Positions 5,313 through 64,000 of a stretch of 64,000 nucleotides of DNA are shown here, piece by piece (within the stretch, counting starts at the first letter, position 1; the number at the start of each line of letters is the position of its first letter). The notes under the pieces were generated by a model, which saw only the letters and a list, made by a program, of their open reading frames with translations, was not told the origin of the DNA and did no database searches. The DNA is from a virus. Taxonomy: Duplodnaviria; Heunggongvirae; Uroviricota; Caudoviricetes. Made by a program: the position numbers and the translations under genes. The stretch covers positions 5,543 to 69,542 of IMG/VR virus record IMGVR_UViG_3300034105_001678. The stretch is one strand, 5' to 3'.

Positions 5313-5561
5313 ATGTCAAATCTAAAAGATCAAGAAGTTAACTCTCATTGGACAAAGGTCGCTAAGAGAGTATTAGAGGGAAAAACTATTGTAGAAGTTC
5401 GTTATCTTAATGATGAGGAAATGGAAATGATGGGTTGGTATAAACGACCTGTATGTTTTGTCCTAAATGATGGTACAAGTTGTATGTTATCCTGTGATGA
5501 TGAGGGTAATGATGGTGGAGTTTTATTCTATGGAACTGATGGTGTTTTACCAGTATTATAA
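5313..5561 (+). CDS. hypothetical protein
   Basis: ATG at 5313 (MSNLKD...). Confidence 0.45.
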   Translation: MSNLKDQEVNSHWTKVAKRVLEGKTIVEVRYLNDEEMEMMGWYKRPVCFVLNDGTSCMLSCDDEGNDGGVLFYGTDGVLPVL

Positions 5562-14349: not shown

Positions 14350-14640
14350 TTACTTCTTCTGTTTAAACAACTTTGTCCATATCTGACTACGGGGATTACC
14401 TAACTTCATCCCTATATACTTTCCAATAACTGAACCCAATATATAGAATACTACTATGGTAAAGTTTCCCTTTAGTAAATCATCTATGGCATAATAGGTA
14501 GACACAAGAGCCACCAAATTTAACCATACTGAATTTAAGAGTAGAGCCCCTATCTTATTCTGGTAGGTATACTTTATCTCTAACACCTTAAAGATGTTAA
14601 ATAAAGTTTGTGATGTTAATACTATAAGTTCTTTATACAT
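14350..14640 (-). CDS. small polytopic membrane protein (possibly GtrA-like)
   Basis: 96 aa with about 3 TM helices, immediately downstream of the GT2 gene. Similarity to GtrA is not demonstrable by eye. Confidence 0.35.
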   Translation of the reverse strand: MYKELIVLTSQTLFNIFKVLEIKYTYQNKIGALLLNSVWLNLVALVSTYYAIDDLLKGNFTIVVFYILGSVIGKYIGMKLGNPRSQIWTKLFKQKK

Positions 14641-14670: not shown

Positions 14671-15387
14671 CTACCCCCAATATCCGTGGGAATTTTTGAA
14701 AAATTCTGGGTTGTTTCTGTTTAGATATGACTTAATCATTATCTTGAACATCCATAATACTCCCTTGTTCTTGAACCTACGGGATGATGTATAGGTTCCC
14801 TCTATCTTGACTACCTTAAACTCTTTTGATGTCACCTTTTGTGATATCGAATAATCCTCAGCAAATAGGTGTTCAGGATTGTATCCTCCTACTGTCCAGT
14901 ATGCTCCTGAGTTCCATAATTGAAATCCTCCCACTGCAAAGGGTGTCCCCATATACAAGGATAAGGTCTGGAACATATCAAATACTCTGAATACCCATCT
15001 ATAAGGTTTATCTGTATAGAATGGAACTGTTACCAAATCTTTCCTGTGAGATAAACACTCTTCTATTATCTTTGGGTTGGTTAATAATATATCTGCATCC
15101 AAGAATAACATATACGGAGTTGTTACCAGGTTACTTCCGTTTAATCTTCCTTCTGATGGATATCCTCCTTTGATTACTTCTATATCCAATATATGTTTGA
15201 AGTCTACTTGTAATCTCTTTATCCATATCAATGAATCATTATCGTCTGATATATCTGCTATGATTAATCTTACCCCTGAGATGTGTTTTTGTCTTGATAT
15301 GTATTGAATACAATTATATAAGATTATTCCCTCATTTTTGGATGGGATTACTATTGTTAACCTCTTACGCAATGACCGTATATTCAT
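14671..15387 (-). CDS. glycosyltransferase family 2 (GtrB / Dpm1-like)
   Basis: N-terminal IVIPSKNEG and the LFLDADIL DxD motif are typical of GT-A / GT2. Confidence 0.6.
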   Translation of the reverse strand: MNIRSLRKRLTIVIPSKNEGIILYNCIQYISRQKHISGVRLIIADISDDNDSLIWIKRLQVDFKHILDIEVIKGGYPSEGRLNGSNLVTTPYMLFLDADILLTNPKIIEECLSHRKDLVTVPFYTDKPYRWVFRVFDMFQTLSLYMGTPFAVGGFQLWNSGAYWTVGGYNPEHLFAEDYSISQKVTSKEFKVVKIEGTYTSSRRFKNKGVLWMFKIMIKSYLNRNNPEFFKNSHGYWG

Positions 15388-16081
15388 CGTTATTATATAT
15401 TATATAACTGTTATTCTCAATCCAATCCCCGCAGTTCAGATATCTGATGCCATCTATTTGTTTGTCGTCAGGATGATGTATATGTCCACACATTACCGTT
15501 GTACAGTTATGTTTCATCCCCTGTCTCACTATCTCCTGCTCGAATGATGTCATAAACTTCACCGCCTCCTTCACCTTATCCTTTAGATATTTGGATAATG
15601 ATCTCTTATACCCCCACGATTTGAGTCTCCTGTCAATGGATATCGCCATATCATATCCGATACTACCAAGAACTCCGAGCCACTTCAACTTAACCACACC
15701 ATCATATAAATCCCCGTGGGTAATGTAGGTATTGTTATAGACATACTCATTATGAACCTCTATGTTCCCGAAAGATAACTCAAGGTAATCCCTCATAAAC
15801 TCATCGTGGTTCCCAGGAATATAAATTACCTTTGTCCCGTTCTTTGAATACGATAGAATCTTCCTCAGCACATTCGTATGTGACTGCGGCCACCTGAACT
15901 TCCTCTTTAGTAACCACCCGTCAATGATGTCCCCAACCAAAAACAAATACTCTGGTTGATACATCTTCAGTACCTCCAACACCTCTGTTGCATTGGAACC
16001 CTTTGATCCCAAATGAACGTCCGAAATAAATAATGCTTGTATCTTCATCCCCATAAATATCCTTCCCATCTCACGGGACAC
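15365..16081 (-). CDS. calcineurin-like metallophosphoesterase, LpxH/YbbF family
   Basis: LFISDVHLG, LVGDIIDGW, IPGNHDE and GHIHH motifs with spacing like UDP-2,3-diacylglucosamine hydrolase LpxH. Confidence 0.55.
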   Translation of the reverse strand: MSREMGRIFMGMKIQALFISDVHLGSKGSNATEVLEVLKMYQPEYLFLVGDIIDGWLLKRKFRWPQSHTNVLRKILSYSKNGTKVIYIPGNHDEFMRDYLELSFGNIEVHNEYVYNNTYITHGDLYDGVVKLKWLGVLGSIGYDMAISIDRRLKSWGYKRSLSKYLKDKVKEAVKFMTSFEQEIVRQGMKHNCTTVMCGHIHHPDDKQIDGIRYLNCGDWIENNSYIIYNNDEYTVIA

Positions 16082-48663: not shown

Positions 48664-48712
48664 ATATAGTAAAAAAAGTTAGGATATACGTATTTATATA
48701 AAAAAATATATT

Positions 48713-49737: not shown

Positions 49738-50859
49738 TTAATTACTTAATGGTGCTTTTATTGACGGGTGATATTGGTAATTTTCTAATATTACATCTTT
49801 TTCTCCGAATGAAAATATACCATCCATAATGTGTACAGTTGGTAAATTAAATGGTTCTCTGTTTATTTGTTCTTTAGCTTGTTCAATATGGTTCTTATAT
49901 AAATGAACATCACCTAAATTACCTATTAATTCATCTGGTACCATACTCATTTCATCCGCAATCATCATTAATAATAAACCATATGACGCAATGTTAAATG
50001 GTAAACCTAAAAATGTATCAACAGATCTTTGATTCCACATTAAGGATATTGCTCGTTTAGGTATATTGTGTGATTGTAACTCTTCACTCAATCCCCCACC
50101 AAATGGAACTATATCATCAACCATTGATTTAAACCTTTCCTCACCAACTTTCTTCTTTAATAAGTCCCACATCTCTTCCCCAGTTAACTTTCTAGTGTAG
50201 ACTTGAAAACCATAATGACAAGGCGGTAAAACCATTTGGTCTAACTCACCCACGTTCCAAGCACTTACCATCAATCTTCTACTATCTGGATTTGTTTTAA
50301 GTTCATCAATTAGATTTTGAATTTGGTCTAAATAAATTGGGTCACCGTTATCGGATATGTCTTGTAATCCACCCCATTTTCTCCATTGTTTACCATAAAT
50401 TGGTCCGAGTTCTCCCCATTCCTTAGCAAACTCATCATCAATTTTGATAAGATTAATAAATTCTTCTTGAGTTAATGGTGTTAACATATCCGAATTACTG
50501 AACAGTATTTCAATGTGTGGTTGGATACCCATAATATCTCCACATTTATATCCATCAATAATCTCATTAATCTTTTTAGAATAGTTTTTATAAGCATCAC
50601 CATTCCAAATGCTACATCCATTCATCACTAGATACTTGATGTTAGTACTACCACTTAAAAACCAAATCAACTCGGTTACCATAGTTTTCCAAGCCATTTT
50701 CTTAGTTGTTAATAATGGAAACCCCTGAGCCATTCTATGACGTATTTGTCTACCAAAAACTGAAATGGTTCCAGTTCCAGTTCTATCCGTTTTAACAACT
50801 CCATTATCCAAAATATCTTGTAGTAAATCTTGATACTTCTTATCAATCGTATTCATCAT
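49738..50859 (-). CDS. thyA: thymidylate synthase (ThyA) with two insertions
   Basis: DRTGTGT, GFPLLTTKK, SAWNVGELDQMVLPPCHYGFQVY, LGLPFNIASY. About 100 aa longer than E. coli ThyA. Start trimmed to MMNTIDKK. Confidence 0.85.
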   Translation of the reverse strand: MMNTIDKKYQDLLQDILDNGVVKTDRTGTGTISVFGRQIRHRMAQGFPLLTTKKMAWKTMVTELIWFLSGSTNIKYLVMNGCSIWNGDAYKNYSKKINEIIDGYKCGDIMGIQPHIEILFSNSDMLTPLTQEEFINLIKIDDEFAKEWGELGPIYGKQWRKWGGLQDISDNGDPIYLDQIQNLIDELKTNPDSRRLMVSAWNVGELDQMVLPPCHYGFQVYTRKLTGEEMWDLLKKKVGEERFKSMVDDIVPFGGGLSEELQSHNIPKRAISLMWNQRSVDTFLGLPFNIASYGLLLMMIADEMSMVPDELIGNLGDVHLYKNHIEQAKEQINREPFNLPTVHIMDGIFSFGEKDVILENYQYHPSIKAPLSN

Positions 50860-51065
50860 ATTAATTTTTTTCTTCTTCAATTTCATATCCTTCTTGGATT
50901 TGTACTCCCATCATATAGGTTAACCACCTGATTGTTAACCCCCAACAAGGTGACGTTATACCCGTTTCAAGGAACTCCGTTTTGTTATAAAAAAAAACTA
51001 CCGTTGGTATTATGAACCAATGGTGCCTTTTATTATAAATAAAAAAGTCTTTGTAGTAAATTTTT

Positions 51066-51956: not shown

Positions 51957-52063
51957 AATTATACCTCTTTCCATTGATTTTTTAAATTATTTTTGTTAAC
52001 TTTTATAAAATATAAGTAATCAATAACAATAAAACAAACTATTTATAATTAAACATTAATACT

Positions 52064-52243
52064 ATGGGCTGCGGATGTAAAAAAAGAGCTGACGAACAAC
52101 CTGTTCAAGAACAGACTCAAAACGTAACAATCAAATTAACTGAATCTAATACAGGTTCATCAACTACCATTACCCAAACTCAAGAGGAGTTGGTAGAGAA
52201 AATTGTCGCTAAACTTAACGATTTAGAGGGCAATAACCAATAA
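52064..52243 (+). CDS. 59-aa hypothetical protein (MGCGCKKRADEQ...), possibly N-acylated
   Basis: ORF followed by hairpin atatcggacagggaatatcggattctgtccgatatt. Its MGCGC N-terminus resembles a dual acylation motif, which would be odd in a phage. Confidence 0.3.
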   Translation: MGCGCKKRADEQPVQEQTQNVTIKLTESNTGSSTTITQTQEELVEKIVAKLNDLEGNNQ

Positions 52244-52316
52244 TATATCGGACAGGGAATATCGGATTCTGTCCGATATTTTTTACCTTATCTGTATATA
52301 AAATTTTATATATTAT

Positions 52317-52514
52317 ATGAAAGCGCAAACAAAATTAACGAGTGTGAATATCTTAGATGATGTTTACAAAAAATTCAAAATTAAATCAATCGAAGGTTCA
52401 ATTAACCTTCAAAAATTGGTTAATCGATCATTGGACCTTTACAATAAAGATGAAAAGTTCAGAGACCTAATAAACGATCATAACGGATTAGCCGCTAGCG
52501 GTTCAAAGTTTTAA
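52317..52514 (+). CDS. hypothetical protein
   Basis: ORF. Confidence 0.35.
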   Translation: MKAQTKLTSVNILDDVYKKFKIKSIEGSINLQKLVNRSLDLYNKDEKFRDLINDHNGLAASGSKF

Positions 52515-52518
52515 ATTA

Positions 52519-53874
52519 ATGAAGAAAAAAATATTACTTTTATCTGATGATTTAAGAATGACATCAGGTATTGCTACTATGTCCAAAGAAATCGTATTAG
52601 GTACCGTCCACAAATACGATTGGGTTCAGTTGGGTGCATCGATTAGTCACCCTGAAATTGGGAAGATTGTTGATGTAAATGACGACATAAGAAAACGCAC
52701 CGGAGTTGAAGATGCGAATTTAAAGATTATACCATACAATGGTTATGGGGATATCAATATGATTCGTAGATTGTTAGACGAAGAAAAACCAGATGCCATT
52801 CTTCATTTTACGGACCCACACTATTGGCAATGGTTATACGATAACGAACACGAGATAAGACAGCGTGTACCAATTTTATATTGGCACATTTGGGATGACT
52901 TACCAGATCCACAATACAATAGAGACTTCTATGAAAGTTGTGATTGGGTTGGTGGTATTTCAAAACAAACATACGGTATTATTCATCGTGTTAGTAAAAG
53001 AACCGATAAGGTTACATTTAAACCTTTGGAAGATTGGCAGATAAGTTACGTTCCTCACGGTATTAATCCAGATTTATTTAAACCGTTAGATACTATCAGT
53101 GAAGAAGTAACTAAATTTATTCACGGAGAAAAGAAATATGACTTTGTTCTATTTTACAACAGTAGAAACATTAGAAGGAAACAACCAAGTGACGTAATTT
53201 ATTCATTTAAATTATTCTGTGATAGATTACCAAAAGAAAAGGCTGAAAAATGTTTATTGCTAATGCACACATCTCCGGTTGATGAGAATGGTACAGACTT
53301 ACCTGCAGTTATTAATGACCTTTGTCCTTATGATGTTAGATTCACGGGTATTAAATTAGAACAAGATAAGCTAAATGAATTCTATAACATTGTTGATTGT
53401 ACAATTAACATTGCAAACAATGAAGGATTTGGTTTAACGACGGCAGAATCTTTAATGTCGGGAACACCAATCATTGTAAATGTTACTGGTGGGTTACAGG
53501 ATCAATGTGGATTTGATTTTAGTGCCGATGATTATATTAGTGTCGGTACTTTACATAGTAAGGAAGAAAGAAGTCAAACAGCTCACGGTGAATGGGTTAT
53601 TCCTGTTTGGCCATCGGCAATTAACTTAAATGGTTCAGTACCAACACCATACATTTTTGATGATAGGGTTAATGATATTGAAGTTGCTGATGCTATTATG
53701 AAAATGTATAAGTTTAGTAAAAAGAAGAGAAAAGAAAAAGGATTAAAAGGTAGAGAGTTTATGATTAACAATCTATCAAATAAAATAATGTGTGATAAAC
53801 TGATTGAAGGTATTGATACCACAATGGAAAAATTCACACCAAGAAAAAGATTCGACACATATAAAGTAATATGA
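52519..53874 (+). CDS. glycosyltransferase, GT-B fold (GT1/GT4-like)
   Basis: C-terminal EGFGLTTAESLMSGTPIIVNVTGGLQDQ is a GT4-type donor-binding motif. Confidence 0.65.
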   Translation: MKKKILLLSDDLRMTSGIATMSKEIVLGTVHKYDWVQLGASISHPEIGKIVDVNDDIRKRTGVEDANLKIIPYNGYGDINMIRRLLDEEKPDAILHFTDPHYWQWLYDNEHEIRQRVPILYWHIWDDLPDPQYNRDFYESCDWVGGISKQTYGIIHRVSKRTDKVTFKPLEDWQISYVPHGINPDLFKPLDTISEEVTKFIHGEKKYDFVLFYNSRNIRRKQPSDVIYSFKLFCDRLPKEKAEKCLLLMHTSPVDENGTDLPAVINDLCPYDVRFTGIKLEQDKLNEFYNIVDCTINIANNEGFGLTTAESLMSGTPIIVNVTGGLQDQCGFDFSADDYISVGTLHSKEERSQTAHGEWVIPVWPSAINLNGSVPTPYIFDDRVNDIEVADAIMKMYKFSKKKRKEKGLKGREFMINNLSNKIMCDKLIEGIDTTMEKFTPRKRFDTYKVI

Positions 53875-55127
53875 TTAAACCATTTTTATTATTTAGAGGA
53901 CCAGTAAAAACAAGAAGCGGATATGGTGCACATTCAAGAGACTTACTTGAATCACTTTATAAGATGGACTTGTTTAATATTAAAATTGATAGTTGTTCTT
54001 GGGGAAGTACTCCATTAACCGCATTAGAAGAAGGGAATGAATTCCATAATTGGATTAATGAAAACATCATTACCAACTTACCGGATCAACCAGAGATTTA
54101 TGTACAAGTAACCGTACCAAATGAATTTCAAAGAGTTGGTAAATTTAATATAGGTGTGACCGCAGGTATTGAAACAACTGTGGCACCTAAAAATTGGGTG
54201 GATGGTTGTAATAGGATGGATCACATCATAACCACTTCAACATTTTCTAGAGACGTTTTATTACAAACAGTTTATAATGAAACAGAAAATAATACTGGAA
54301 AATTAATTAAACAATTTAGAATTGAAAAACCCGTTTCAGTATTGTTTGAAGGTGTTGATACATCAATATATAATAACAAATATAAAGGTATCGATGTCGA
54401 TATTACGGAAGATTTTGCGTATCTTTTTGTTGGTCATTGGTTGAAAGGTGATACTGGTCAAGATCGTAAAGATGTTGGAATGTTGATTAGATGTTTCATT
54501 GAAGCATTTAAGGATGAAGAAGTAAAACCTGCGTTAGTTCTTAAAACGTCGTCAGCAACTTTCTCAGTTAGACAAAGAGAAGATTTTAGAAAGAAAATTG
54601 AGGATATTGTTAAGTTAAGTAAAACCGATACTCCTCCATCAATTTATCTTTTGTTTGGTGAATTAACCAATGAGGAAATGAATGAGTTATATAATCATCC
54701 TAAAATAAAAGCAATGGTTTCAATAACAAAAGGTGAAGGATTTGGTAGACCGTTATTAGAATTTACAATGACGGGTAAACCTGTGATAGCATCTAATTGG
54801 TCTGGACATAAAGACTTCTTACCTATGGAGAAAGCTATAATGGTTGGTGGTTCATTAACTGAAGTACACGAAAGTGTGATAGATGATTTTATCATTAAGG
54901 GTTCCAAATGGTTCACAGCCAATTATAACGAGTTTACAGAAGTGATGAAAATTGTTATTAAAGATTATGATAAGTTTTTGGAGAAGTCTGAATTGCTTAG
55001 AGAGTTTAACTCTGAAAACTTTACGTTGGATAATATGAAAAATAAGTTTGAATCTATTTTAAAACAAAATACAATTCAACCAAAAGAACATAAATTGGTT
55101 TTACCAAAACTCACAAAAGTTAACTAA
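53871..55127 (+). CDS. glycosyltransferase, GT-B fold (GT1/GT4-like)
   Basis: KGEGFGRPLLEFTMTGKPVIASNWSGHKDFL. The N-terminus MIKPFLLFRGP resembles the MIKPFKFF family motif. Confidence 0.6.
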   Translation: MIKPFLLFRGPVKTRSGYGAHSRDLLESLYKMDLFNIKIDSCSWGSTPLTALEEGNEFHNWINENIITNLPDQPEIYVQVTVPNEFQRVGKFNIGVTAGIETTVAPKNWVDGCNRMDHIITTSTFSRDVLLQTVYNETENNTGKLIKQFRIEKPVSVLFEGVDTSIYNNKYKGIDVDITEDFAYLFVGHWLKGDTGQDRKDVGMLIRCFIEAFKDEEVKPALVLKTSSATFSVRQREDFRKKIEDIVKLSKTDTPPSIYLLFGELTNEEMNELYNHPKIKAMVSITKGEGFGRPLLEFTMTGKPVIASNWSGHKDFLPMEKAIMVGGSLTEVHESVIDDFIIKGSKWFTANYNEFTEVMKIVIKDYDKFLEKSELLREFNSENFTLDNMKNKFESILKQNTIQPKEHKLVLPKLTKVN

Positions 55128-55378
55128 TGTCATTTAAATTTCTCACAGGTAACCAAGATATGTTTACACATTTGGAACCCACCCAACTATTAACATTAAG
55201 ACAACCAACAATGATTAACAATGTTGAATTTTGTTTTCAGTTTGGTGATAATGAACCCGTAGTATTTGCAACAGGACCTAATGAATGTCAAATTCGATTA
55301 AGTCCACAAACAGATGCTAATATTATGTTCACAGATAATCATAGACAGTTTAAATTATTTGCAAGAGAAAGACAATGA
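55127..55378 (+). CDS. hypothetical protein
   Basis: ORF. Confidence 0.35.
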   Translation: MSFKFLTGNQDMFTHLEPTQLLTLRQPTMINNVEFCFQFGDNEPVVFATGPNECQIRLSPQTDANIMFTDNHRQFKLFARERQ

Positions 55379-55584
55379 GAAAGTTTACCTTCTTTGTTGG
55401 TATTAGTAAACCAACACTAACCGCAACTTGGTCACCTGAATTCAATGATAATTTATTTACTAACCACGGTATTGATGCTGAGGCGGAACTAACAAGAATA
55501 ATGTCAGCAGAAATTGCAAGAACAATAGATGAAGATATAATAAGAACATTAACAAGAGAAATAAACGGAGGATTAAGAGCCTAA
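55375..55584 (+). CDS. hypothetical protein
   Basis: ORF. Confidence 0.35.
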   Translation: MRKFTFFVGISKPTLTATWSPEFNDNLFTNHGIDAEAELTRIMSAEIARTIDEDIIRTLTREINGGLRA

Positions 55585-55585
55585 T

Positions 55586-56431
55586 ATGAAAATTTTAGTA
55601 ACAGGAGGAGCAGGATTTATAGGAACTAATCTAATTAAGAGATTATTATTTGAAGGGCATAATGTAGAATCTATTGACAACTACGATAGTGGGTTAGTGT
55701 CCAATCACGTAGATGGGTGTAACTATCATACGGGAGATATAGAATCTATTGGTTTGATGGATAAAGACTTTGATATGATATATCATTTAGCGGGACTAAG
55801 TAGAATCCAACCATCGTTTAAAAATCCAACAGAAACTTTCAGAGTTAATACTATAGGTACCGAGAGTGTTTGTTCATTTGCAAAGAAAATAAATGCTAAG
55901 GTTGTATATGCGGGTTCGTCGTCAAGATGGCACGACCCATTTCAATCACCATACGCTTGTTACAAACATATGGGTGAAGAGATTTGTAAAATGTACAGAA
56001 AGGTTTATGATATAGACATTGAAATTGTTAGATTTTATAATGTTTACGGACCTAACGAAGTTGTTGACGGTGATTGGGCCGCAGTTATTGGTATATGGAG
56101 AAGACAAGTTATTAATAAGGAACCAATTACTATTGTTGGTGACGGTAATCAAAGACGAGATTTCACACACGTTATTGATATAGTTGATGGTTTATATAGG
56201 GTTGGTACGAGTAACGAAAAACACGAAGACGCTTGGGAGTTAGGTACTGGAACCAATTATTCAATACTTGAAGTCTATGAAATGTTTAAGGAAAAATTTG
56301 GGTGTGATAAGTTACACATTGAGAATCAGAAGGGTAACTATCGTATAACTTTGCGTGAAAATAACGATGCAATCGACCGTTTAGGTTGGTCACCAGAAAA
56401 TAGATTAAAAAATTATGTAGATAGTTTATGA
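55586..56431 (+). CDS. NAD-dependent sugar epimerase/dehydratase (SDR family)
   Basis: Rossmann ILVTGGAGFIGTNL. Catalytic YACYKHMGEE (YxxxK). Confidence 0.75.
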   Translation: MKILVTGGAGFIGTNLIKRLLFEGHNVESIDNYDSGLVSNHVDGCNYHTGDIESIGLMDKDFDMIYHLAGLSRIQPSFKNPTETFRVNTIGTESVCSFAKKINAKVVYAGSSSRWHDPFQSPYACYKHMGEEICKMYRKVYDIDIEIVRFYNVYGPNEVVDGDWAAVIGIWRRQVINKEPITIVGDGNQRRDFTHVIDIVDGLYRVGTSNEKHEDAWELGTGTNYSILEVYEMFKEKFGCDKLHIENQKGNYRITLRENNDAIDRLGWSPENRLKNYVDSL

Positions 56432-57051
56432 AAATAAGTTTTGCTATAACAGTATCCAAAGAGATAAACGAAATTAAACATTTAGTTCCATTCTTATTAG
56501 AACATAAACGACCTCAAGATGAGATAGTTGTTTTGTTTGATGAAAAAAATGGAGACAAGGAAGTGTTAGATTTTTTATTGCCTTTTAATATCAAACCTAA
56601 CGTACAAACCTGGAGAGGTTTTGATTTTGATTATAACTTTGCCGATTGGAAGAATAAATTAAATTCTTATTGTGTTGGGGATTATATATTTCAATTAGAT
56701 GCTGATGAGATGGTAAGTGAGTATATGATAAAGAACGTTACTGAAATCATTTCTATGAATAAGGACGTTGAGTTATTTTTTCTACCAAGAATAAACATAG
56801 TAAGTGGAATAACTCAGGATCATATTAATAGATGGGGATGGATAGTTGATGACTTAGGTAGGATTAACTTTCCAGACTTTCAAGGTAGAATATATAAGAA
56901 AGGTTTGGAATGGCAGGGAAAAGTTCACGAAAGAATTGTAGGAACGAAGTCCTATTCATTACTACCATCAGATGAAGAGTCGTATTGTATTAAACATTAC
57001 AAAGACATATCTAAACAAGAACAACAAAATAACTTATACAGTAAAATATGA
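56428..57051 (+). CDS. putative glycosyltransferase (GT-A, DxD QLDADE)
   Basis: DxD motif and GT2-like N-terminus. Confidence 0.45.
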   Translation: MKISFAITVSKEINEIKHLVPFLLEHKRPQDEIVVLFDEKNGDKEVLDFLLPFNIKPNVQTWRGFDFDYNFADWKNKLNSYCVGDYIFQLDADEMVSEYMIKNVTEIISMNKDVELFFLPRINIVSGITQDHINRWGWIVDDLGRINFPDFQGRIYKKGLEWQGKVHERIVGTKSYSLLPSDEESYCIKHYKDISKQEQQNNLYSKI

Positions 57052-57596
57052 AACTAGAAGAAATATACAATCAGAGATGTTCAACTCCATCGGATATTAA
57101 TGAACACTTACCAACATTAAAGAAATACGCCGAGGAGTGTGACCACATTACCGAAATGGGAGTTAGATGGGTGGTATCAACTTACGCCTTTATGATGGGG
57201 GGACCTAAAAAATTAATATCAATTGACATTAACCCCGTTGAAAAACACGGAATTAAAGTTGAAGACTTAGTTGAATTAGCCAAAGAAAAAAATGTTGATT
57301 TTGAATTTCAATTAGGTGACACTACTGTAATTGAAATTGATGAAACTGATTTTCTTTTTATTGATACTTGGCACGTTTACCAACAATTAAAAACAGAATT
57401 AACACTACACGGTAATAAAGCTAGAAAATATATTGGATTCCACGACACCACAATATTTGAAACTAGAGGGGAAAACGGTCATCCTGGTTTATGGCCCGCA
57501 ATCGAGGAGTTCTTATCTGAAAACCCTCATTGGTCAGTCCACGAAAGGTTTACAAATAACAACGGATTAACTATATTAAAGAGAAATGAAGATTGA
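57048..57596 (+). CDS. putative class I SAM-dependent O-methyltransferase (TylF/CmcI-like)
   Basis: EMGVRWVVSTYAFMMGG...ISIDI...FLFIDTWHVY pattern. Confidence 0.4.
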   Translation: MKLEEIYNQRCSTPSDINEHLPTLKKYAEECDHITEMGVRWVVSTYAFMMGGPKKLISIDINPVEKHGIKVEDLVELAKEKNVDFEFQLGDTTVIEIDETDFLFIDTWHVYQQLKTELTLHGNKARKYIGFHDTTIFETRGENGHPGLWPAIEEFLSENPHWSVHERFTNNNGLTILKRNED

Positions 57597-58164
57597 ATTT
57601 ATAATACCGACTTATAATAGGGTACATCACTTAATGACTATTATTAGTTCAATATTTGCTCAAACTAATCCAAATTGGTATATACACGTTGTTGCCGATT
57701 GTCCACCCGAAGGAACATTAGATAAGATAATGGACTTTTACAAGGATAGTGATAAAATAAAATTCACAATTTTAGAAAAAAGGTATAACGATTGGGGACA
57801 TACCCCAAGAAATTACGGATTAAAAAACTCTAAAGAAGAGTGGGTTATTATGACGGGAGAGGATAACTACTACGTTCCTACTTTTGTTGGGGAATTTTTA
57901 AAAGTTGCAACTCAGAACACCATATTTGTTTATTGTAATATGGTTCATAATTGGGTGAATAAAGACTACATTGCAATTAAATCTCAACCAATATTAGGTC
58001 ACATTGATATTGGTAATTTTATGGTTAAAAAAAGATTAGCTAAAGATATGGAATTGGATGTGACAGAAGCTAACGCCGATGGTTTGTTTGTTGAGGAATA
58101 CTTGAGACAATATCCTTTCGGTAAACAAAAGTTTATAGAAAAATTTTTATATGTCCACAACTAA
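57586..58164 (+). CDS. glycosyltransferase family 2
   Basis: FIIPTYNRVHHL...AQTNPNW...ADCPPEG and DxD-like VIMTGEDNYY. Confidence 0.55.
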   Translation: MKIEFIIPTYNRVHHLMTIISSIFAQTNPNWYIHVVADCPPEGTLDKIMDFYKDSDKIKFTILEKRYNDWGHTPRNYGLKNSKEEWVIMTGEDNYYVPTFVGEFLKVATQNTIFVYCNMVHNWVNKDYIAIKSQPILGHIDIGNFMVKKRLAKDMELDVTEANADGLFVEEYLRQYPFGKQKFIEKFLYVHN

Positions 58165-58915
58165 AAAGAAATGTGCGGTTTTTACTATTGTAAAAAATGA
58201 AAATTACTTCTTACCAATATGGTTAAAACATTATAAGAGGTACTTTGATAATTCAGACATTTATATCTTAGACCATCAATCGAATGATGGGTCAACTGAA
58301 GGATTAGATGTTAATGTTGACTTAGTTATTAACGAAATGGCATTTGATCATCAATGGTTAGTTAATACCGTAGAAAACTTCCAAGTTAAATTACTTGAGA
58401 ACTATGAATCGGTTTTATTTGTGGAAATAGATGAGATAATATATACTCTTGACAAACCATTAAATGAAGTTATAATTGATTTTATTAACGATGATAATTT
58501 ACTTGTTCAATCTTGTACTAGTAGAGATTTATTACAAATTTTAGAAACAGAAAAGTCTTTAGAAGAGGGTGATTTAATTATTGAAAATAGAAACTATTGG
58601 TTCGAGGATGCAATTTACCATAAAACATTATTATCTAAAGTACCTTTAAAATGGGTGGTTGGATTTCATTACATAACTAACCATACCACAAACCACACAC
58701 TTAACCTTAGAATGTGTCACTTACATCGTTTTGATTTTGAATTAATGTGTGAAAGAAATATTCATCGTATAAATAATACCCAAATTGAGGGTGGTGCAAA
58801 TGGTTTTCAAAATAAAACAACAGATAAAAATAAATTAATGGATTTCTTTATTATGGAACATAATAAAAAGGAACTCATTCCTGAAGAACATAAAATAGCT
58901 CTAAAACATATATGA
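58151..58915 (+). CDS. putative GT-A glycosyltransferase (GT92/GT2-like)
   Basis: AVFTIVKNENYFLPIWLKHYKRYF..IYILDHQSNDGSTEGL resembles the GT92 N-terminal region. Confidence 0.4.
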   Translation: MSTTKKKCAVFTIVKNENYFLPIWLKHYKRYFDNSDIYILDHQSNDGSTEGLDVNVDLVINEMAFDHQWLVNTVENFQVKLLENYESVLFVEIDEIIYTLDKPLNEVIIDFINDDNLLVQSCTSRDLLQILETEKSLEEGDLIIENRNYWFEDAIYHKTLLSKVPLKWVVGFHYITNHTTNHTLNLRMCHLHRFDFELMCERNIHRINNTQIEGGANGFQNKTTDKNKLMDFFIMEHNKKELIPEEHKIALKHI

Positions 58916-59538
58916 ATTTAATTGATAAAAATATCTACAATGAATTTACTTTATTGCCCGAAGATACATCTGGTTGGAATGGGAATAGTGAAGTTTTTGT
59001 TAAATTAATTACAGAAATTAAACCTAAAACAATTATTGAAGTTGGTTCTTGGAAAGGACAGTCAGCAATTAATATGGGTAAAACAACTAAGGAATTGGGA
59101 TTAGGTACCACAATACATTGTGTGGACACTTGGTTAGGTGCAATTGAATTTTGGTCAAGTTTAAAGGAAACAGAAGAACGTAATTTATTATTACGTCACG
59201 GATACCCTCAGATTTATTATCAATTTTTAAGTAATGTAATTCACAATGGTTTACAAGATACTATTTTACCATTTCCAAATACATCGGAAAATGGATTTAG
59301 ATATTTTAGAGATATAAAACTGACCGCGGATTTAATTTACATCGACGCCTCTCACGAGGAGGAAGATGTTTATAAAGATGTAAATAATTATTTTACCTTA
59401 TTAAACGCGGGAGGTATAATATTTGGGGATGATTATGTTAGTTGGATTGATGTAAAGAAATCAATTGACAGATTCGTTAAAGAACAAAATTTAACTTTAG
59501 AAGTATTGGAAAATAATTTTTGGGTTATAAAAAAATAA
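58912..59538 (+). CDS. class I SAM-dependent methyltransferase (CmcI/TylF-type sugar O-methyltransferase)
   Basis: SAM motif IIEVGSWKGQSA. IYIDASHEEEDV acidic motif. Confidence 0.55.
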   Translation: MNLIDKNIYNEFTLLPEDTSGWNGNSEVFVKLITEIKPKTIIEVGSWKGQSAINMGKTTKELGLGTTIHCVDTWLGAIEFWSSLKETEERNLLLRHGYPQIYYQFLSNVIHNGLQDTILPFPNTSENGFRYFRDIKLTADLIYIDASHEEEDVYKDVNNYFTLLNAGGIIFGDDYVSWIDVKKSIDRFVKEQNLTLEVLENNFWVIKK

Positions 59539-59542
59539 GATT

Positions 59543-60637
59543 ATGGTATATGATTACTTAATAGTGGGTTCTGGATTCTTCGGTAGTATCTGTGCACACG
59601 AACTTAACAAAACAGGTAAGAAGGTTTTAGTGATTGATTCAAGAAATCATATAGGTGGTAACTGTCACACAGAAAATAAAGATGGTATCAATGTTCACAC
59701 ATATGGTCCTCACGTATTTCACACATCAAATGAAGAAGTTTGGAAATGGATTAATCAATTTGTTGAATTCAATAACTTCAGACTGAATCCTGTTGCCAAT
59801 TACAAAGATGAATTGTATTCGTTACCTTTTAATATGTGGACATTTAATAAGTTATGGAATGTTACCACACCTGAACAAGCTAAACTTGTTATTGAGAATC
59901 AATCTAAAGAGATTGGTGAACCAACTAACTTAGAGGAACAAGCAATTAAATTGGTTGGTAAGGATGTGTATGAGAAATTGATTAAAGGATATACCACCAA
60001 ACAATGGAAGAAAGACCCTAAAGAATTACCTAAAGAGATTATAACTAGATTACCTGTTAGATTTACATTTGATGGTAACTACTTCAATGACAAGTATCAA
60101 GGTATTCCAATTGGTGGTTACACACAGATATTTGAAAAGTTATTAGATGGTATTGAAGTTAGGTTGGGTGTTGATTATTTCAAAGATGAATTACCCGAAC
60201 ATACTAAAGTAATATACACTGGTCCTATTGATAGGTTCTTTGATTACAAGTATGGTGAATTAGAATATAAAACAACAAGGTTCGAACATAAACACTTTGA
60301 CACACCAAACTATCAAGGTACAGCAGTAATGAACTACACTGAAGAAGAGATAGTACATACTAGAACTATTGAACATAAACATTTTGAAAGTTCAGACACA
60401 CCAACAACTTGGGTTTCGTGGGAATATCCTCACACATATAAGGCAGGTGAGACCGAACCATATTATCCTGTGAATGATAAATCAAATACTGAGATATATT
60501 CAAAGTATAAAGAAGAGGCAAATAAATTAAGTGATAGTGTTTTATTTGGTGGTAGGTTAGCCGAGTACAAATATTATGATATGCATCAAGTAATTGCGTC
60601 AGCGTTAGATTTTATAAATAAAGAAATTAATAAATGA
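59543..60637 (+). CDS. glf: UDP-galactopyranose mutase
   Basis: MVYDYLIVGSGFFGSICAHEL...VIDSRNHIGGNCHTE...HVFHTSNEEVW closely parallels E. coli Glf (MYDYIIVGSGLFGAVCANEL...IEKRNHIGGNAYTE...HIFHTNDKYIW). Confidence 0.85.
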   Translation: MVYDYLIVGSGFFGSICAHELNKTGKKVLVIDSRNHIGGNCHTENKDGINVHTYGPHVFHTSNEEVWKWINQFVEFNNFRLNPVANYKDELYSLPFNMWTFNKLWNVTTPEQAKLVIENQSKEIGEPTNLEEQAIKLVGKDVYEKLIKGYTTKQWKKDPKELPKEIITRLPVRFTFDGNYFNDKYQGIPIGGYTQIFEKLLDGIEVRLGVDYFKDELPEHTKVIYTGPIDRFFDYKYGELEYKTTRFEHKHFDTPNYQGTAVMNYTEEEIVHTRTIEHKHFESSDTPTTWVSWEYPHTYKAGETEPYYPVNDKSNTEIYSKYKEEANKLSDSVLFGGRLAEYKYYDMHQVIASALDFINKEINK

Positions 60638-61743
60638 ATATAACATTTGTATTGGCGGTATTAAATAAATTAGATTTAACCAAGGATTGTTATAATCATT
60701 TACGTAAGTTATATCCAGAGGTACCGTTAGTTATTAGTAGTGGCGGATCTTTAGATGGTACAAAGGAATGGTTAGAATCTTTAGATGATGAGTATATGTC
60801 ATATTTTCACGACGATGAAAGATTGACATTTTCCGATACCTACAATGCTGGAATTAAATTAGTTGATACTGAGAAATTAGTGTTGATACATAACGATATG
60901 GTTATTGGTGAACAGTTCTTAGAGAACTTAGATAGATTATTAGATGAGAATCCAAATACTTTATTATCGTACACCACAATTGAACCTCCAATCTTTAAGG
61001 GACACAAAAGACCTGGTAAAGTATTAATGGATATGGGGTCATCGTTTCATAATTTTGACCATACTTTATTTGAACGATACGTTCAAGACAATAAAGATAA
61101 ATGTAATATCTACGATGGTGCGGTTTTCTTTATGAGTGGGACCAAGAAAATGTTTGATGATATTGGCGGGTTTGATGGTTTTAGTTTTGTCCCTTGTTTC
61201 TGTGAGGATGATGATTTCTTAATTCGTGCGAAACTAAAAGGCTACGAACTTAAAACTACGGACTGTGCAATCACCTATCATTTTGTTTCGCAGACATCTA
61301 GATTTAGTGACGAGATGAAGACCGATAGGTTTAAAATTGAAGTTTCGTCAAATAGAAACTTTATTAGGAAGTGGGGTATTCCAATATCATCGTTTAATGA
61401 ATTAAGATATTGGGAAGATAAGATTTTCAAATATAATACCTTTTCAATTGGTTTGACAACTAGAGATAAATCGAAATTAGTACAATTAGAACCTTACTTT
61501 GATAAAATCGATTTAGGGGTGATTCCTGAAGATTATATAGAGAATGAACAAAAGAATACACGCTACGATTTAAGGTCGAAATTTACCCTTACTGACACCG
61601 TTGACGTGATGGTTTATGAAACTGCACCATTCACAGATGAAGACATTTATACTTTGAATAGATTAAGGTTGTCATTACCTCATTATGAACCTGGACAATA
61701 CAATATAGGTAATATGTTAATAGAAATAAAAAAGGGACTATAA
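60634..61743 (+). CDS. putative glycosyltransferase (GT2-like; candidate galactofuranosyltransferase)
   Basis: N-terminal GT-A-like region. Sits directly downstream of glf. A terminator hairpin follows at 61735-61760. Confidence 0.4.
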   Translation: MNITFVLAVLNKLDLTKDCYNHLRKLYPEVPLVISSGGSLDGTKEWLESLDDEYMSYFHDDERLTFSDTYNAGIKLVDTEKLVLIHNDMVIGEQFLENLDRLLDENPNTLLSYTTIEPPIFKGHKRPGKVLMDMGSSFHNFDHTLFERYVQDNKDKCNIYDGAVFFMSGTKKMFDDIGGFDGFSFVPCFCEDDDFLIRAKLKGYELKTTDCAITYHFVSQTSRFSDEMKTDRFKIEVSSNRNFIRKWGIPISSFNELRYWEDKIFKYNTFSIGLTTRDKSKLVQLEPYFDKIDLGVIPEDYIENEQKNTRYDLRSKFTLTDTVDVMVYETAPFTDEDIYTLNRLRLSLPHYEPGQYNIGNMLIEIKKGL

Positions 61744-61755
61744 GTCCCTTTTTTA

Positions 61756-62211
61756 TTATTTCTTAATCAACTTAAATAGTACTTGATATTTGTCTTTTGT
61801 TTTTCCCGCTTCCTTTAGATCTTCTTTGGTAATTTCAGGATATTCAATTTCAATTTCTTGATTTAAAAGTACACCATATTCATTATCAAATTCGATGTAC
61901 TGAGGGTTAACAACTTTACCAGTTACGGTACCTTCATCGTCCTTAACTTCGTTGTACATTTTTACTAAGACGCCACCATTACCATCTTCTTCTCCATACT
62001 TTTTGATTAATTCATCTCTTAATGCTTCAACCTTAGTTCTCTCGCCTTTAAGTTCTGTTGAGAAGTCACTCAATTCGTATTTCAAAATGATTGAAAGGTT
62101 TTGTTTACTGAATCCCTCAAACACCTGTTCTCCAGTTTGTGGTTCGATATACCCGTTAATTTCGCTTTCTAATTGTAGAACGTCCCCTAATTTTAATGTG
62201 ATTTTTTCCAT
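61756..62211 (-). CDS. hypothetical acidic protein
   Basis: ORF. Confidence 0.4.
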   Translation of the reverse strand: MEKITLKLGDVLQLESEINGYIEPQTGEQVFEGFSKQNLSIILKYELSDFSTELKGERTKVEALRDELIKKYGEEDGNGGVLVKMYNEVKDDEGTVTGKVVNPQYIEFDNEYGVLLNQEIEIEYPEITKEDLKEAGKTKDKYQVLFKLIKK

Positions 62212-62262
62212 ATTTTTTAATTTTCTTTTATAATATATATTTTATTTTTCAAAAAGTGAATC

Positions 62263-62871
62263 TTATTTCCACCACCATCCTTTACCGTCAAAAACGGCAT
62301 AGTCCATTATTAAATTAATTCTATCTGATTGACTTTGGTTTCTAACCTCGTGTTCAACCATATCATTCAATTCCCAAACCTCTCCAACCTTAAAGAACTT
62401 ATCTTCATCCCTAACATTGTAGATAATCTTATCTTCCTCGGAAATCAATGCAACGTGAACTCTATGACTAAGGGTGTAAGAACCACCAACGTCTATATGT
62501 CTATTAACATTCTTACCTGCAAATAGTTTAACGAACACAGCCCTAGCAAGATAACCTGGACCGTATTCTTTTTCCAAGACCTTCATAACAGGTTCCAATA
62601 ATTCTTCCATATTAAGAAGATCCCAATACTTGTGTTTAGTTCCGTTAAAGTGTCTAAAGTCTTTATCATATATTAATTGAATGGCTTGGGTTGCGGAATG
62701 GAATCTACTATATGCTTCTTGTCTAAAAGTATCAGCACCCCAATCCTCATCTTCAATTTTACTTAAGGAATCAATTAATGGTTGTGGGTTAATTGTACCC
62801 AAAAATTTAAAATTTTCTCCTATGTTCATAGAATAGTGATTAATGCGTATGTTATCATAAGTGATATCCAA
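62263..62871 (-). CDS. aspartyl/asparaginyl beta-hydroxylase-like 2OG-Fe(II) oxygenase (LpxO/AspH family)
   Basis: HIDVGGSYTLSHRVHVAL and GEVWELNDMVEHEVRNQSQSDRINLIMD match family motifs (HxD...RLHLGL; FDDS.EHEVWN.S...R). Confidence 0.5.
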   Translation of the reverse strand: MDITYDNIRINHYSMNIGENFKFLGTINPQPLIDSLSKIEDEDWGADTFRQEAYSRFHSATQAIQLIYDKDFRHFNGTKHKYWDLLNMEELLEPVMKVLEKEYGPGYLARAVFVKLFAGKNVNRHIDVGGSYTLSHRVHVALISEEDKIIYNVRDEDKFFKVGEVWELNDMVEHEVRNQSQSDRINLIMDYAVFDGKGWWWK

Positions 62872-63830
62872 ATTATTAATGCTTTAAGATATGTCATAAA
62901 TCCTGTGTGAAAATACTTTTGACCTATCGGTAAACATTTATGTGAAGGCGATATCAAATACGCGGAATATTCCAAAGTGAAAAACAATACAAAATAATGC
63001 ATACCAAATACACTTGTTAATAAACTAACAATACTTGCATATTTTGCTGAAGACCCTAATAAAAATGAAGATAAGAAAGATATCATCGACACTATTAAAA
63101 TGTATTCTGGTTTGTTATATTGTTTTATATAACCTTCCATAACGCCATAATAAGAACCAACTACGTTACCTAATATAATCACTAACGCAACAATCCATAT
63201 TAGTTCCCAATTAATATAATTTATTAACTTAGTCCAACTGTTAGAATAATAGACTAGATAGAGTGTAAATATTGTAAACGCTCCAAAATAATAATCGGTG
63301 AAGCAACTAATAATAATTGTACCTAAGAATGGTAAAACAACATTAGTAATATTCTTCCAATTAATTGGGTCGTCACTTACTTCGATATCTATTTCATCGT
63401 CATCCATAGATAGGATATAATAACTAATATATAATCCTGAAATCAATAACAATGGCCAGATATATGACATAAACTGCATATAGGTTAACCCTAACACCGC
63501 CATAGGAATAATAACTGTTTTCTCTAATGGTGACCATAGATAGTAATGATGAGTTGCAAGGTAATCGATGATACCAAACTTCTTACGTTTCTTATTATCA
63601 ATCGGAGCAATACTATTCAACATAGATGCCGATAGTGCAACACGACCTGGTATGGGTAGAATACCACCAAATAGTGATACTAAGAATACTACCATCTTTT
63701 TAGATTTAACTTTTTGTTCTAGTAATCTAAAGATGTCCATAAGGTATCCTCTTTCTTTGAGGATACCTGTTACGAACATAATGAATATTAAATAGACAAG
63801 GAACTCTTGCCCTTTGATTAAAATCTCCAT
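62826..63830 (-). CDS. polytopic membrane protein (about 10 TM; possible Wzy/EpsG-like polymerase)
   Basis: Hydropathy only. Located next to the glycan island. Confidence 0.35.
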   Translation of the reverse strand: MEILIKGQEFLVYLIFIMFVTGILKERGYLMDIFRLLEQKVKSKKMVVFLVSLFGGILPIPGRVALSASMLNSIAPIDNKKRKKFGIIDYLATHHYYLWSPLEKTVIIPMAVLGLTYMQFMSYIWPLLLISGLYISYYILSMDDDEIDIEVSDDPINWKNITNVVLPFLGTIIISCFTDYYFGAFTIFTLYLVYYSNSWTKLINYINWELIWIVALVIILGNVVGSYYGVMEGYIKQYNKPEYILIVSMISFLSSFLLGSSAKYASIVSLLTSVFGMHYFVLFFTLEYSAYLISPSHKCLPIGQKYFHTGFMTYLKALIIWISLMITYALITIL

Positions 63831-64000
63831 ATTAAAAATTATATTTAACTATTAAATTAAGACTTCTTGATGGTAAATCAACTGATGAACCCCAAACTCT
63901 ACTTACATCATTAAATAAATTATAAACTAATAATGTGTAATTTAATTTGTTTTGTTTTGTTGAGTATCCGATATTAACTAACCTCACACCCTTATTATGT

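Follow-up and report, generated by a model that had tools for sequence, protein, structure and literature searches.

The stretch of viral DNA analysed here, hereafter the window, comes from a large freshwater phage and covers 64,000 nucleotides (positions 5,543 to 69,542 of the IMG/VR record IMGVR_UViG_3300034105_001678, Caudoviricetes). Its plus strand carries 13 genes between positions 52317 and 61743 (9.4 kb) that form one translationally coupled operon, as expected from the overlaps of 1–14 nt or gaps of 1–4 nt found at nearly every junction of neighbouring open reading frames (ORFs). The window almost certainly holds one allele of a lineage-wide glycan-assembly operon, in which the glycosyltransferases (GTs) GT-B1, GT-B2, GT2a and GT2c make up a scaffold and further genes occupy an exchangeable slot. 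The slot genes of this allele encode an epimerase-like short-chain dehydrogenase/reductase (SDR), two GT-A enzymes, two O-methyltransferases and the UDP-galactopyranose mutase Glf. The enzyme genes, all on the plus strand, are listed below with their principal family or model support.

52519–53874, plus strand: GT-B1, GT4-type retaining glycosyltransferase (core); Glycos_transf_1, 31.8 bits
53871–55127, plus strand: GT-B2, GT4-type glycosyltransferase (core); Glycos_transf_1, 28.9 bits
55586–56431, plus strand: extended SDR, nucleoside diphosphate (NDP)-sugar 4-epimerase-like; Pfam Epimerase, E 2e-44
56428–57051, plus strand: GT2a, small GT-A glycosyltransferase (core); DAD motif; Glycos_transf_2, 22.3 bits, just under the cut-off of 23.3
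57048–57596, plus strand: MT1, predicted cation-dependent O-methyltransferase fold (cassette); AlphaFold model, mean predicted local distance difference test (pLDDT) 96.3, and Foldseek
57586–58164, plus strand: GT2b, GT-A glycosyltransferase (cassette); Glycos_transf_2, 57.8 bits, E 1.7e-15
58151–58915, plus strand: GT2_4, GT-A-type glycosyltransferase (cassette); Glyco_tranf_2_4, 30.0 bits against a cut-off of 27.5
58912–59538, plus strand: MT24, class I S-adenosylmethionine (SAM) methyltransferase of the Methyltransf_24/CmcI/TylF group (cassette); Methyltransf_24, 61 bits, E 2e-16
59543–60637, plus strand: Glf, UDP-galactopyranose mutase (cassette); TIGR00031 equivalog, 410.4 bits against a cut-off of 303.75
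60634–61743, plus strand: GT2c, GT-A glycosyltransferase (core; last gene); Glycos_transf_2, 36.9 bits

Enzymes, scaffold and cassette

Homologues were counted by tblastn over 82 related loci. Both GT-B enzymes pass the Pfam gathering cut-off of 26.4 bits for Glycos_transf_1 and carry the EX7E motif, as EGFGLTTAE in GT-B1 and EGFGRPLLE in GT-B2. They are found at all 82 loci, with a median identity of 76% for GT-B1 and 73% for GT-B2. Among solved structures, chlorovirus B736L (3oy2, E 1e-9) is the best match to GT-B1, with the likeness confined to the GT4 C-terminal domain. GT2b and GT2c exceed the Glycos_transf_2 cut-off, and GT2_4 exceeds that of its own family. GT2a is marginal by profile but is 45% identical to a protein of the cultured Flavobacterium phage immuto annotated as 'glycosyltransferase family 2', and it occurs at 78 of the loci with a median identity of 66%. 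GT2c (56 loci, many being truncated; median identity 74%) has a conserved C-terminal extension of ~140 aa and weakly matches the O-polysaccharide fucosyltransferase WrtF (9omh, E 3e-4). GT2b is present at 25 loci and absent from L003, the closest relative of the window; L003 is the only one of the 82 with a homologue of GT2_4.

The SDR contains the motifs GGAGFIG, SSS and YxxxK (YACYK) and lacks the Asp-Glu pair of dehydratases, a pattern that we take to be GalE-like. Its scores lie far below all NCBIfam equivalog cut-offs, and no specific activity can be assigned. MT24, found at 7 loci, is placed by its Methyltransf_24 match, and its matches to the CmcI and TylF profiles are sub-threshold. 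MT1 has no match in Pfam or NCBIfam; its family comprises at least 5,464 proteins without annotation. Nearly all of the top 50 Foldseek matches of its model are O-methyltransferases with a probability of 1.00, and they include the sugar O-methyltransferase MeT1 of M. hassiacum (6g80, TMq 0.69). The model points to a class I O-methyltransferase fold for MT1, with cation-dependent O-methyltransferases as its best matches. Its relation to MT24-like proteins is weak by hhalign (E 0.011), with a pairwise BLAST E of 4e-6. MT1 has homologues at just 3 other loci and is absent from the 97%-identical L003. Glf, in addition to its equivalog score, matches PF03275 over all profile positions (1–203 of 203, E 4e-74) and has an N-terminal FAD-binding Rossmann domain (NAD_binding_8, E 1.9e-22, residues 7–73). 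By family it is a bona fide UDP-galactopyranose mutase and is predicted to interconvert UDP-galactopyranose (UDP-Galp) and UDP-galactofuranose (UDP-Galf); it occurs at 6 loci.

An earlier reading of the window made from its letters and ORFs (the original prediction) had described a co-oriented plus-strand cluster of two GT-B enzymes, a sugar epimerase/dehydratase of the SDR type, four GT-A enzymes, two TylF/CmcI-like O-methyltransferases and a bona fide Glf. The cluster is indeed co-oriented over 52519–61743, with start/stop overlaps between nearly all neighbours. The GT-B, GT-A and Glf assignments hold, that of GT2a by homology to the immuto GT2, and the SDR assignment holds at the family level. 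Methyltransferase identity is supported for MT24 by its family and for MT1 by its model; the narrower TylF/CmcI label stays below threshold in MT24, and MT1 matches no family profile.

The scaffold is held tightly across the lineage. GT-B1, GT-B2 and GT2c have median identities of 73–76%, compared with 68% for the neighbouring thymidylate synthase (ThyA). The distance from GT2a to GT2c ranges from 8 bp to 7.4 kb across loci, and 34 architectures are seen among the 57 complete loci (56 fetched loci and the window). Analysis of cassette families in 56 complete loci, with immuto excluded, gave 53 gene families and 0–9 cassette genes per locus. The Jaccard similarity of cassettes drops to 0.16 at 75–85% GT-B1 identity. 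Cassettes of other alleles encode DegT aminotransferases, CmcI-like methyltransferases, a PhyH dioxygenase, KASIII-like and ketoreductase proteins, SDRs, hexapeptide acyltransferases, and GT2 and TOD1-type GTs. The locus has strain-variable content inside conserved flanks, by which the hypervariable islands of aquatic myophages are recognized.

The sharpest view of the slot comes from L003, which shares 96.5–97% nucleotide identity with the window and lacks exactly window positions 57054–58148 (MT1 and GT2b, 1,095 bp). The indel site in L003 is at 14534–14538, the junctions lie at gene boundaries, and GT2a is fused in frame to GT2_4. The window and L003 are a natural near-isogenic pair differing by one methyltransferase and one GT.

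The cluster is phage-borne, in agreement with the original prediction. At least 202 viral contigs of IMG/VR encode a GT-B1 relative. Those fetched, 80 in number, are 67–97% identical and lie on contigs of up to 335 kb, and one further relative lies on a 636-kb contig. Between the same two phage flanks, the locus is found again in the 80 fetched viral contigs, drawn from many samples, and in the complete genomes of two cultured phages, immuto and Microcystis phage Mel-JY01, whose clusters are homologous and syntenic. At the nucleotide level, a megablast search of 50,697 phage records with the region gave no match; the relatives were found by protein-level search. Misassembly of a host chromosomal capsule or O-antigen locus next to phage DNA, named in the original prediction as one of two outcomes that would undo it, would explain the likeness of the gene content to bacterial polysaccharide loci and the binning of some relatives under 'MAG: Bacteroidota bacterium' (MAG, metagenome-assembled genome). 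The recurrence of the locus with its phage flanks speaks against such an artefact. The GC content is also flat over the cluster (0.29–0.33), and the window gene census detected no cellular housekeeping families and did find phage-type genes. The scenario is effectively refuted, and we assign it a negligible probability. Nor is the cluster an island acquired from a host capsule locus, an origin that the original prediction had suggested checking. The GC content is flat and the locus is conserved across the lineage; a search for tRNA or att-type boundaries found no tRNA, and the edges of the cluster and of the cassette carry no meaningful repeats, direct or inverted.

Operon boundaries, small genes and neighbours

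The remaining features of the operon and its surroundings are as follows.

52233–52291, plus strand: inverted repeat followed by a T-run, intrinsic terminator-like; read from the sequence and an inverted-repeat scan
52295–52312, strand not applicable: perfect 18-bp AT palindrome TATATAAAATTTTATATA, ~5 nt 5' of the first gene
52317–52514, plus strand: s65, first gene of the operon, 65 aa; 81 of 82 loci, immuto included at 34%
55127–55378, plus strand: s83, small predicted all-beta protein of 83 aa, coupled to GT-B2
55375–55584, plus strand: s69 ('mini-gp23'), 69 aa, stand-alone fragment of a T4-type major capsid protein; Pfam Gp23, E 9e-10
61725–61757, strand not applicable: bidirectional intrinsic terminator with a 15-pair stem, AAAAAAGGGAC...GTCCCTTTTTT, separating the operon from convergent minus-strand genes
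62263–62871, minus strand: AspH-like oxygenase of the Asp/Arg-hydroxylase family, with weak LpxO resemblance (E 5e-5); 1 of 82 loci
62826–63830, minus strand: DUF401/TIGR00529 multi-pass membrane protein; phrog_14035, E 1e-81; 17 of 82 loci

The terminator-like element at 52233–52291 is predicted to insulate the operon from an upstream DUF192 gene and a small ORF. Related loci supply 61 distinct upstream regions, and a hairpin with a T-run precedes the s65 homologue in 45 of them. The motif of the adjoining palindrome has 6 matches in the window against 0.72 expected, of which the copy at the operon is the best, and a palindrome-like motif is found within the last 50 nt 5' of the first gene at 52 of the 61 distinct related loci. 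The palindrome is a candidate promoter or operator of the operon. The order of terminator, palindrome and small ORF is kept in most related loci. A sigma-70 promoter scan performed at chance level, and the T4 late promoter TATAAATA was not informative (12 sites, 13.4 expected). A similar AT palindrome is seen at 48683–48712, 5' of a PcfJ-like gene. Just 5' of the operon terminator lies a 59-aa ORF (52064–52243, plus strand) that starts with MGCGCKK and is rich in Thr and Gln in its middle part; the related loci L168 and L169 have an equally long ORF in the equivalent place.

Three small genes accompany the enzymes in the window. No match to s65 was found in Pfam, NCBIfam or PDB; a by-eye impression that it is a ribbon-helix-helix regulator gained no support from these three and was rejected. 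In most loci, 1–3 small coupled ORFs follow GT-B2 on its 3' side. The s83 family comprises 276 proteins, all metagenome-derived and some binned as Bacteroidota MAGs, and shares the strongly conserved motif EFCFQFDDxEPxVFA...FKLFARER. Its model has a pLDDT of 64, with no structural match below E=1. Some loci carry two s83 paralogues. The s69 protein also matches the major head protein family phrog_138, and its family profile aligns to residues 260–311 of T4 gp23 (6uzc, E 2.6e-7), a strand and a long helix that we take to be the inward-facing spine helix. It is found at 47 of 82 loci with 41–58% identity (family members in L003–L079), often ends in ...NGG..RA, and in a few relatives has Thr-rich insertions. 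The s69 fragments are 30–61% identical to the major capsid proteins of Mel-JY01-like phages (80 such loci, all on other contigs). The dN/dS ratio is ~0.5 for both the s83 and s69 families. The two genes are missing from 30–40% of loci. Immuto and Mel-JY01, with their core GTs retained, are among these; neither protein can therefore be a universal acceptor of the glycan.

On the 3' side, the AspH-like and DUF401 genes overlap each other and both lie beyond the bidirectional terminator. They are not part of the glycan operon. In the original prediction, an AspH/LpxO-like oxygenase and a 10-transmembrane Wzy/EpsG-like protein had followed the cluster. Their strand, their position past the terminator and their rarity among the loci do not agree with this, and the Wzy/EpsG identity was rejected in favour of DUF401/TIGR00529. 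On the minus strand of L168 (16263–20252) and L169 (17277–20252), two Laminin_G_3 (lectin-like) proteins and a ~1,750-aa protein are encoded convergently with the operon. The C-terminus of the ~1,750-aa protein matches a cyanophage fibre (8i4m, E 3.5e-13). Fibre homologues and Laminin_G_3 proteins lie 1–4 kb 3' of the operon in L168, L169 and ~9 other loci.

No transmembrane (TM) segments are predicted in the operon proteins scanned, and no multi-TM protein is encoded among 696 plus-strand ORFs of the 82 related clusters. Therefore no allele has a priming phosphoglycosyltransferase, flippase, polymerase or ligase. No nucleotidyltransferase is present among the operon family assignments. The operon must draw on host NDP-sugars and cannot export a polysaccharide unaided, so that the nearly self-sufficient pathway of the original prediction does not stand. 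The priming enzyme, flippase or exporter, and polymerase that define a Wzx/Wzy- or ABC-dependent polysaccharide locus are all missing.

Candidate acceptors of the glycan

The reading that we tentatively favour is that a strain-specific glycan, O-methylated and containing Galf, is assembled in the cytoplasm on a phage protein, likeliest a virion protein; we give this reading slightly less than an even chance. All operon enzymes would act as soluble proteins, fed by host nucleotide sugars and SAM. The SDR would convert UDP-glucose (UDP-Glc) to UDP-Galp and Glf would convert this to UDP-Galf, followed by GT-A transfer and O-methylation; this route is proposed because the SDR has a GalE-like pattern and lacks the dehydratase pair. 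The oligosaccharide would grow stepwise in the cytoplasm, directly on a phage-made acceptor. Most likely this would be a capsid or fibre protein, which would give each particle a surface glycan of its own strain. The acceptor is the uncertain step and sets our confidence in the scheme.

Four observations favour a virion protein. The conservation of the core GTs is like that of essential genes. No allele carries export genes across the 34 architectures. The best solved homologue of GT-B1 is the chlorovirus GT4 B736L (PMC9614988). A capsid-fragment gene is coupled inside the operon, and fibre and Laminin_G_3 genes lie downstream of it in relatives. This evidence linking the operon to the virion is suggestive only, and several points weigh against the link. 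No glycoprotein has been demonstrated in the lineage so far, and no fibre gene is seen in the window up to its end at 64000. GT4 and GT2 enzymes without TM segments often act on lipid-linked acceptors at the membrane, and their solubility leaves host undecaprenyl phosphate (Und-P) intermediates possible as acceptors. The gp23 fragment presumably corresponds to an inward-facing spine helix and is thus unlikely to mimic a surface acceptor. B736L itself has no known acceptor (PMC9614988), and the authors of work on comparable islands prefer modification of the host O-chain (PMC7029224).

Host envelope remodelling is the main rival explanation. The soluble GTs would extend or decorate host undecaprenyl diphosphate (Und-PP) intermediates of O-antigen, capsule or glycoprotein glycans on the cytoplasmic side. 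The host would then display the altered glycan by means of its own priming enzyme, flippase and ligase, leading to a superinfection block or to changed recognition. The set of GTs and tailoring enzymes resembles that of O-antigen loci; GT2b and GT2c weakly match GTs acting on exopolysaccharide, O-polysaccharide and Und-PP; and the host could supply the missing export genes. Hypervariability beside fibre genes also fits what is seen in pelagimyophages and cyanomyophages, whose 'host recognition cluster' was proposed to play the same role (PMC7029224). Across 34 architectures, however, not a single allele has its own flippase, polymerase or priming enzyme. Host Wzx and Wzy are usually substrate-selective, which weighs against the display of an altered glycan through them. 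The core GTs are held more tightly than ThyA, which would be unusual for an accessory exclusion function, and the benefit to a large, apparently lytic phage is not obvious. We consider envelope remodelling possible but clearly less probable than glycosylation of a phage protein. Virion glycosylation and host polysaccharide modification, both put forward in the original prediction, remain the two leading explanations.

A different soluble acceptor would also suit cytoplasmic enzymes: a non-virion protein of phage or host, s83 or s69 themselves, a lipid or a small molecule. Two small conserved ORFs are coupled directly 3' of the core GT-B genes, and some s69 relatives have Thr-rich insertions. 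As s83 and s69 are missing from so many loci, they could serve at most in some alleles, and we judge this class of acceptors improbable.

The remaining alternative is hypermodification of DNA, in which a hydroxylated or hydroxymethylated base would carry the oligosaccharide made by the GTs and Glf would give UDP-Galf, as proposed for Rhizobium phage RL38J1. Phage Glf has been tied to glycosylated 5-hydroxycytosine DNA in Pootjesviridae, and DNA glycans can reach three sugars (PMC13326640). The ThyA homologue 1.4 kb 5' of the operon, syntenic in 62 of 82 loci, would fit this. The substitutions that mark base-modifying ThyA homologues are N177D, L143D/E and D169N (PMC13326640). The window ThyA keeps the canonical L143, C146, D169 and N177 (VLPPCH; QRSVDTFLGLPFNIASY) and passes the thymidylate-synthase equivalog cut-off, and the 64-kb window has no ThyA paralogue. 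Two C5-cytosine DNA methylases are encoded in the window. The DNA of the syntenic relative immuto consists of dA, dC, dT and fdPreQ1 only (PMC10516641). In addition, 6–7 GTs and two O-methyltransferases exceed what known DNA glycans need. As a lead hypothesis DNA glycosylation was rejected against the published ThyA diagnostic residues, and we hold it to be very unlikely. The window ThyA (49738–50886, minus strand) has 382 aa, ~100 aa beyond the 266-position Pfam profile, and the excess lies in internal insertions.

If the acceptor is a virion protein, as we favour, the division into scaffold and slot might produce phage 'serotypes'. The four-enzyme scaffold would lay a conserved glycan base on the virion, and the recombining slot would vary the outer Galf, O-methyl, amino or acyl sugars. 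Mini-gp23 would help to couple glycosylation to the folding or assembly of the capsid protein. The arrangement would be analogous to bacterial O-antigen variation and to the clade-specific glycans of giant viruses. We regard this fuller scheme as speculative and, taken as a whole, rather doubtful.

Known systems and further observations

The clusters of immuto and Mel-JY01 have the same order as the window: a small ORF, two GT-B genes, in places another small ORF, a GT2 gene, a methyltransferase with tailoring genes, and a terminal GT. Identities to these phages are 46–49% for GT-B1, 42–43% for GT-B2 and 34–45% for GT2a. The immuto cluster differs in its cassette, which has no Glf and encodes WecE/DegT aminotransferases, a mannosyltransferase and an acetyltransferase-like protein. 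The cluster also lacks the mini-gp23 ORF and has a 152-aa zinc-ribbon-like protein in that position. Both clusters are known from annotation only, and we found no functional study of them in the literature.

GT-rich hypervariable islands are known in aquatic phages, and the window locus adds another. Strain-variable islands near tail-fibre genes, among them islands of lipopolysaccharide genes, have been described in large aquatic myophages, including the HTVC008M group, P-SSM2, S-SCSM1 and S-SCSM2R (PMC7029224, PMC12801897), and the GT count of a phage can reach 13 (PMC12801897). The statement in the original prediction that such clusters are rare in phages was therefore too strong. The pelagimyophage and cyanomyophage islands differ in their GT make-up (GT8, GT11, GT25 and others), and a fixed four-GT scaffold is not reported for them. 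HTVC008M and the cyanophages named have no GT-B1 homologue at E<1e-5. We found no description in the literature of a four-GT scaffold with a cassette slot, of the terminator-palindrome entry or of embedded capsid-fragment ORFs. 'Moraphages', freshwater jumbo phages with predicted Bacteroidota hosts, have four GT orthogroups in a widely shared core (PMC12619734). The lineage of the window resembles them in its four core GTs, its contigs of up to 636 kb and its Bacteroidota-binned relatives, and the two may be the same or related lineages.

The mechanism that we adopt is modelled on the mycobacteriophages. These phages encode soluble GTs of their own, which act in the cytoplasm and glycosylate subunits of capsid and tail tube, according to Freeman et al. 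(2023) as reported in PMC12619734. Their clusters are small, with 2–4 genes; they are likened to the operon by mechanism and not by sequence, and the target in the present phage is predicted. In chloroviruses and Megavirinae, cytoplasmic virus GTs and methyltransferases likewise build methylated glycans of virion proteins with clade-specific gene sets; these are giant viruses of eukaryotes. Bacterial O-antigen and capsule loci share with the window the conserved flanks and variable middle as well as GT2, GT4, SDR, Glf, DegT and O-methyltransferase genes. Unlike them, the window locus lacks a priming transferase, Wzx or an ABC exporter, Wzy and a ligase. Rhizobium phage RL38J1 (Pootjesviridae) encodes a Glf 46% identical to that of the window beside GTs and a ThyA homologue; its ThyA homologue has D169N and makes 5-hydroxy-deoxycytidine monophosphate (5hodCMP), whereas the window ThyA is canonical (PMC13326640).

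For the GT-rich islands so common in large aquatic phages, the present locus family gives a clean handle on the question of their targets because it combines a fixed core with many cassette variants, a near-isogenic pair and two cultured relatives. The host of immuto is Flavobacterium sp. LMO8, and that of Mel-JY01 is Microcystis. Should the virion prove to be the target, phage virion glycosylation would extend from mycobacteriophages to abundant environmental phages, and a glycan-based diversification of particles would be implied. Should it be the host envelope, a large, apparently lytic phage would possess a modular system for serotype conversion.

Phage-borne Glf is already known from 90 phage records and from the family phrog_9677. 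The nearest homologues of the window Glf are 76–80% identical and lie on two other phage-like contigs (L083, 3500–9089; L086, 8001–9101). One of these Glf genes accompanies a different GT set (a GlcNAc-transferase-like protein, two GT25 and one GT11), and the other stands by itself on a contig of 487 kb. It thus appears that Glf moves between environmental phages.

Elsewhere in the window, 37 kb from the operon, a stand-alone GT2 (E 9.5e-8) lies beside a metallophosphoesterase (14671–15387 and 15365–16081, both minus strand). Besides the two C5-cytosine DNA methylases, the accessory genes at 1–49000 encode NifU, an Fe-S assembly protein, S-adenosylmethionine decarboxylase, a Band_7/SPFH protein, a DnaA C-terminal helix-turn-helix domain, and M23 and NlpC/P60 peptidases.

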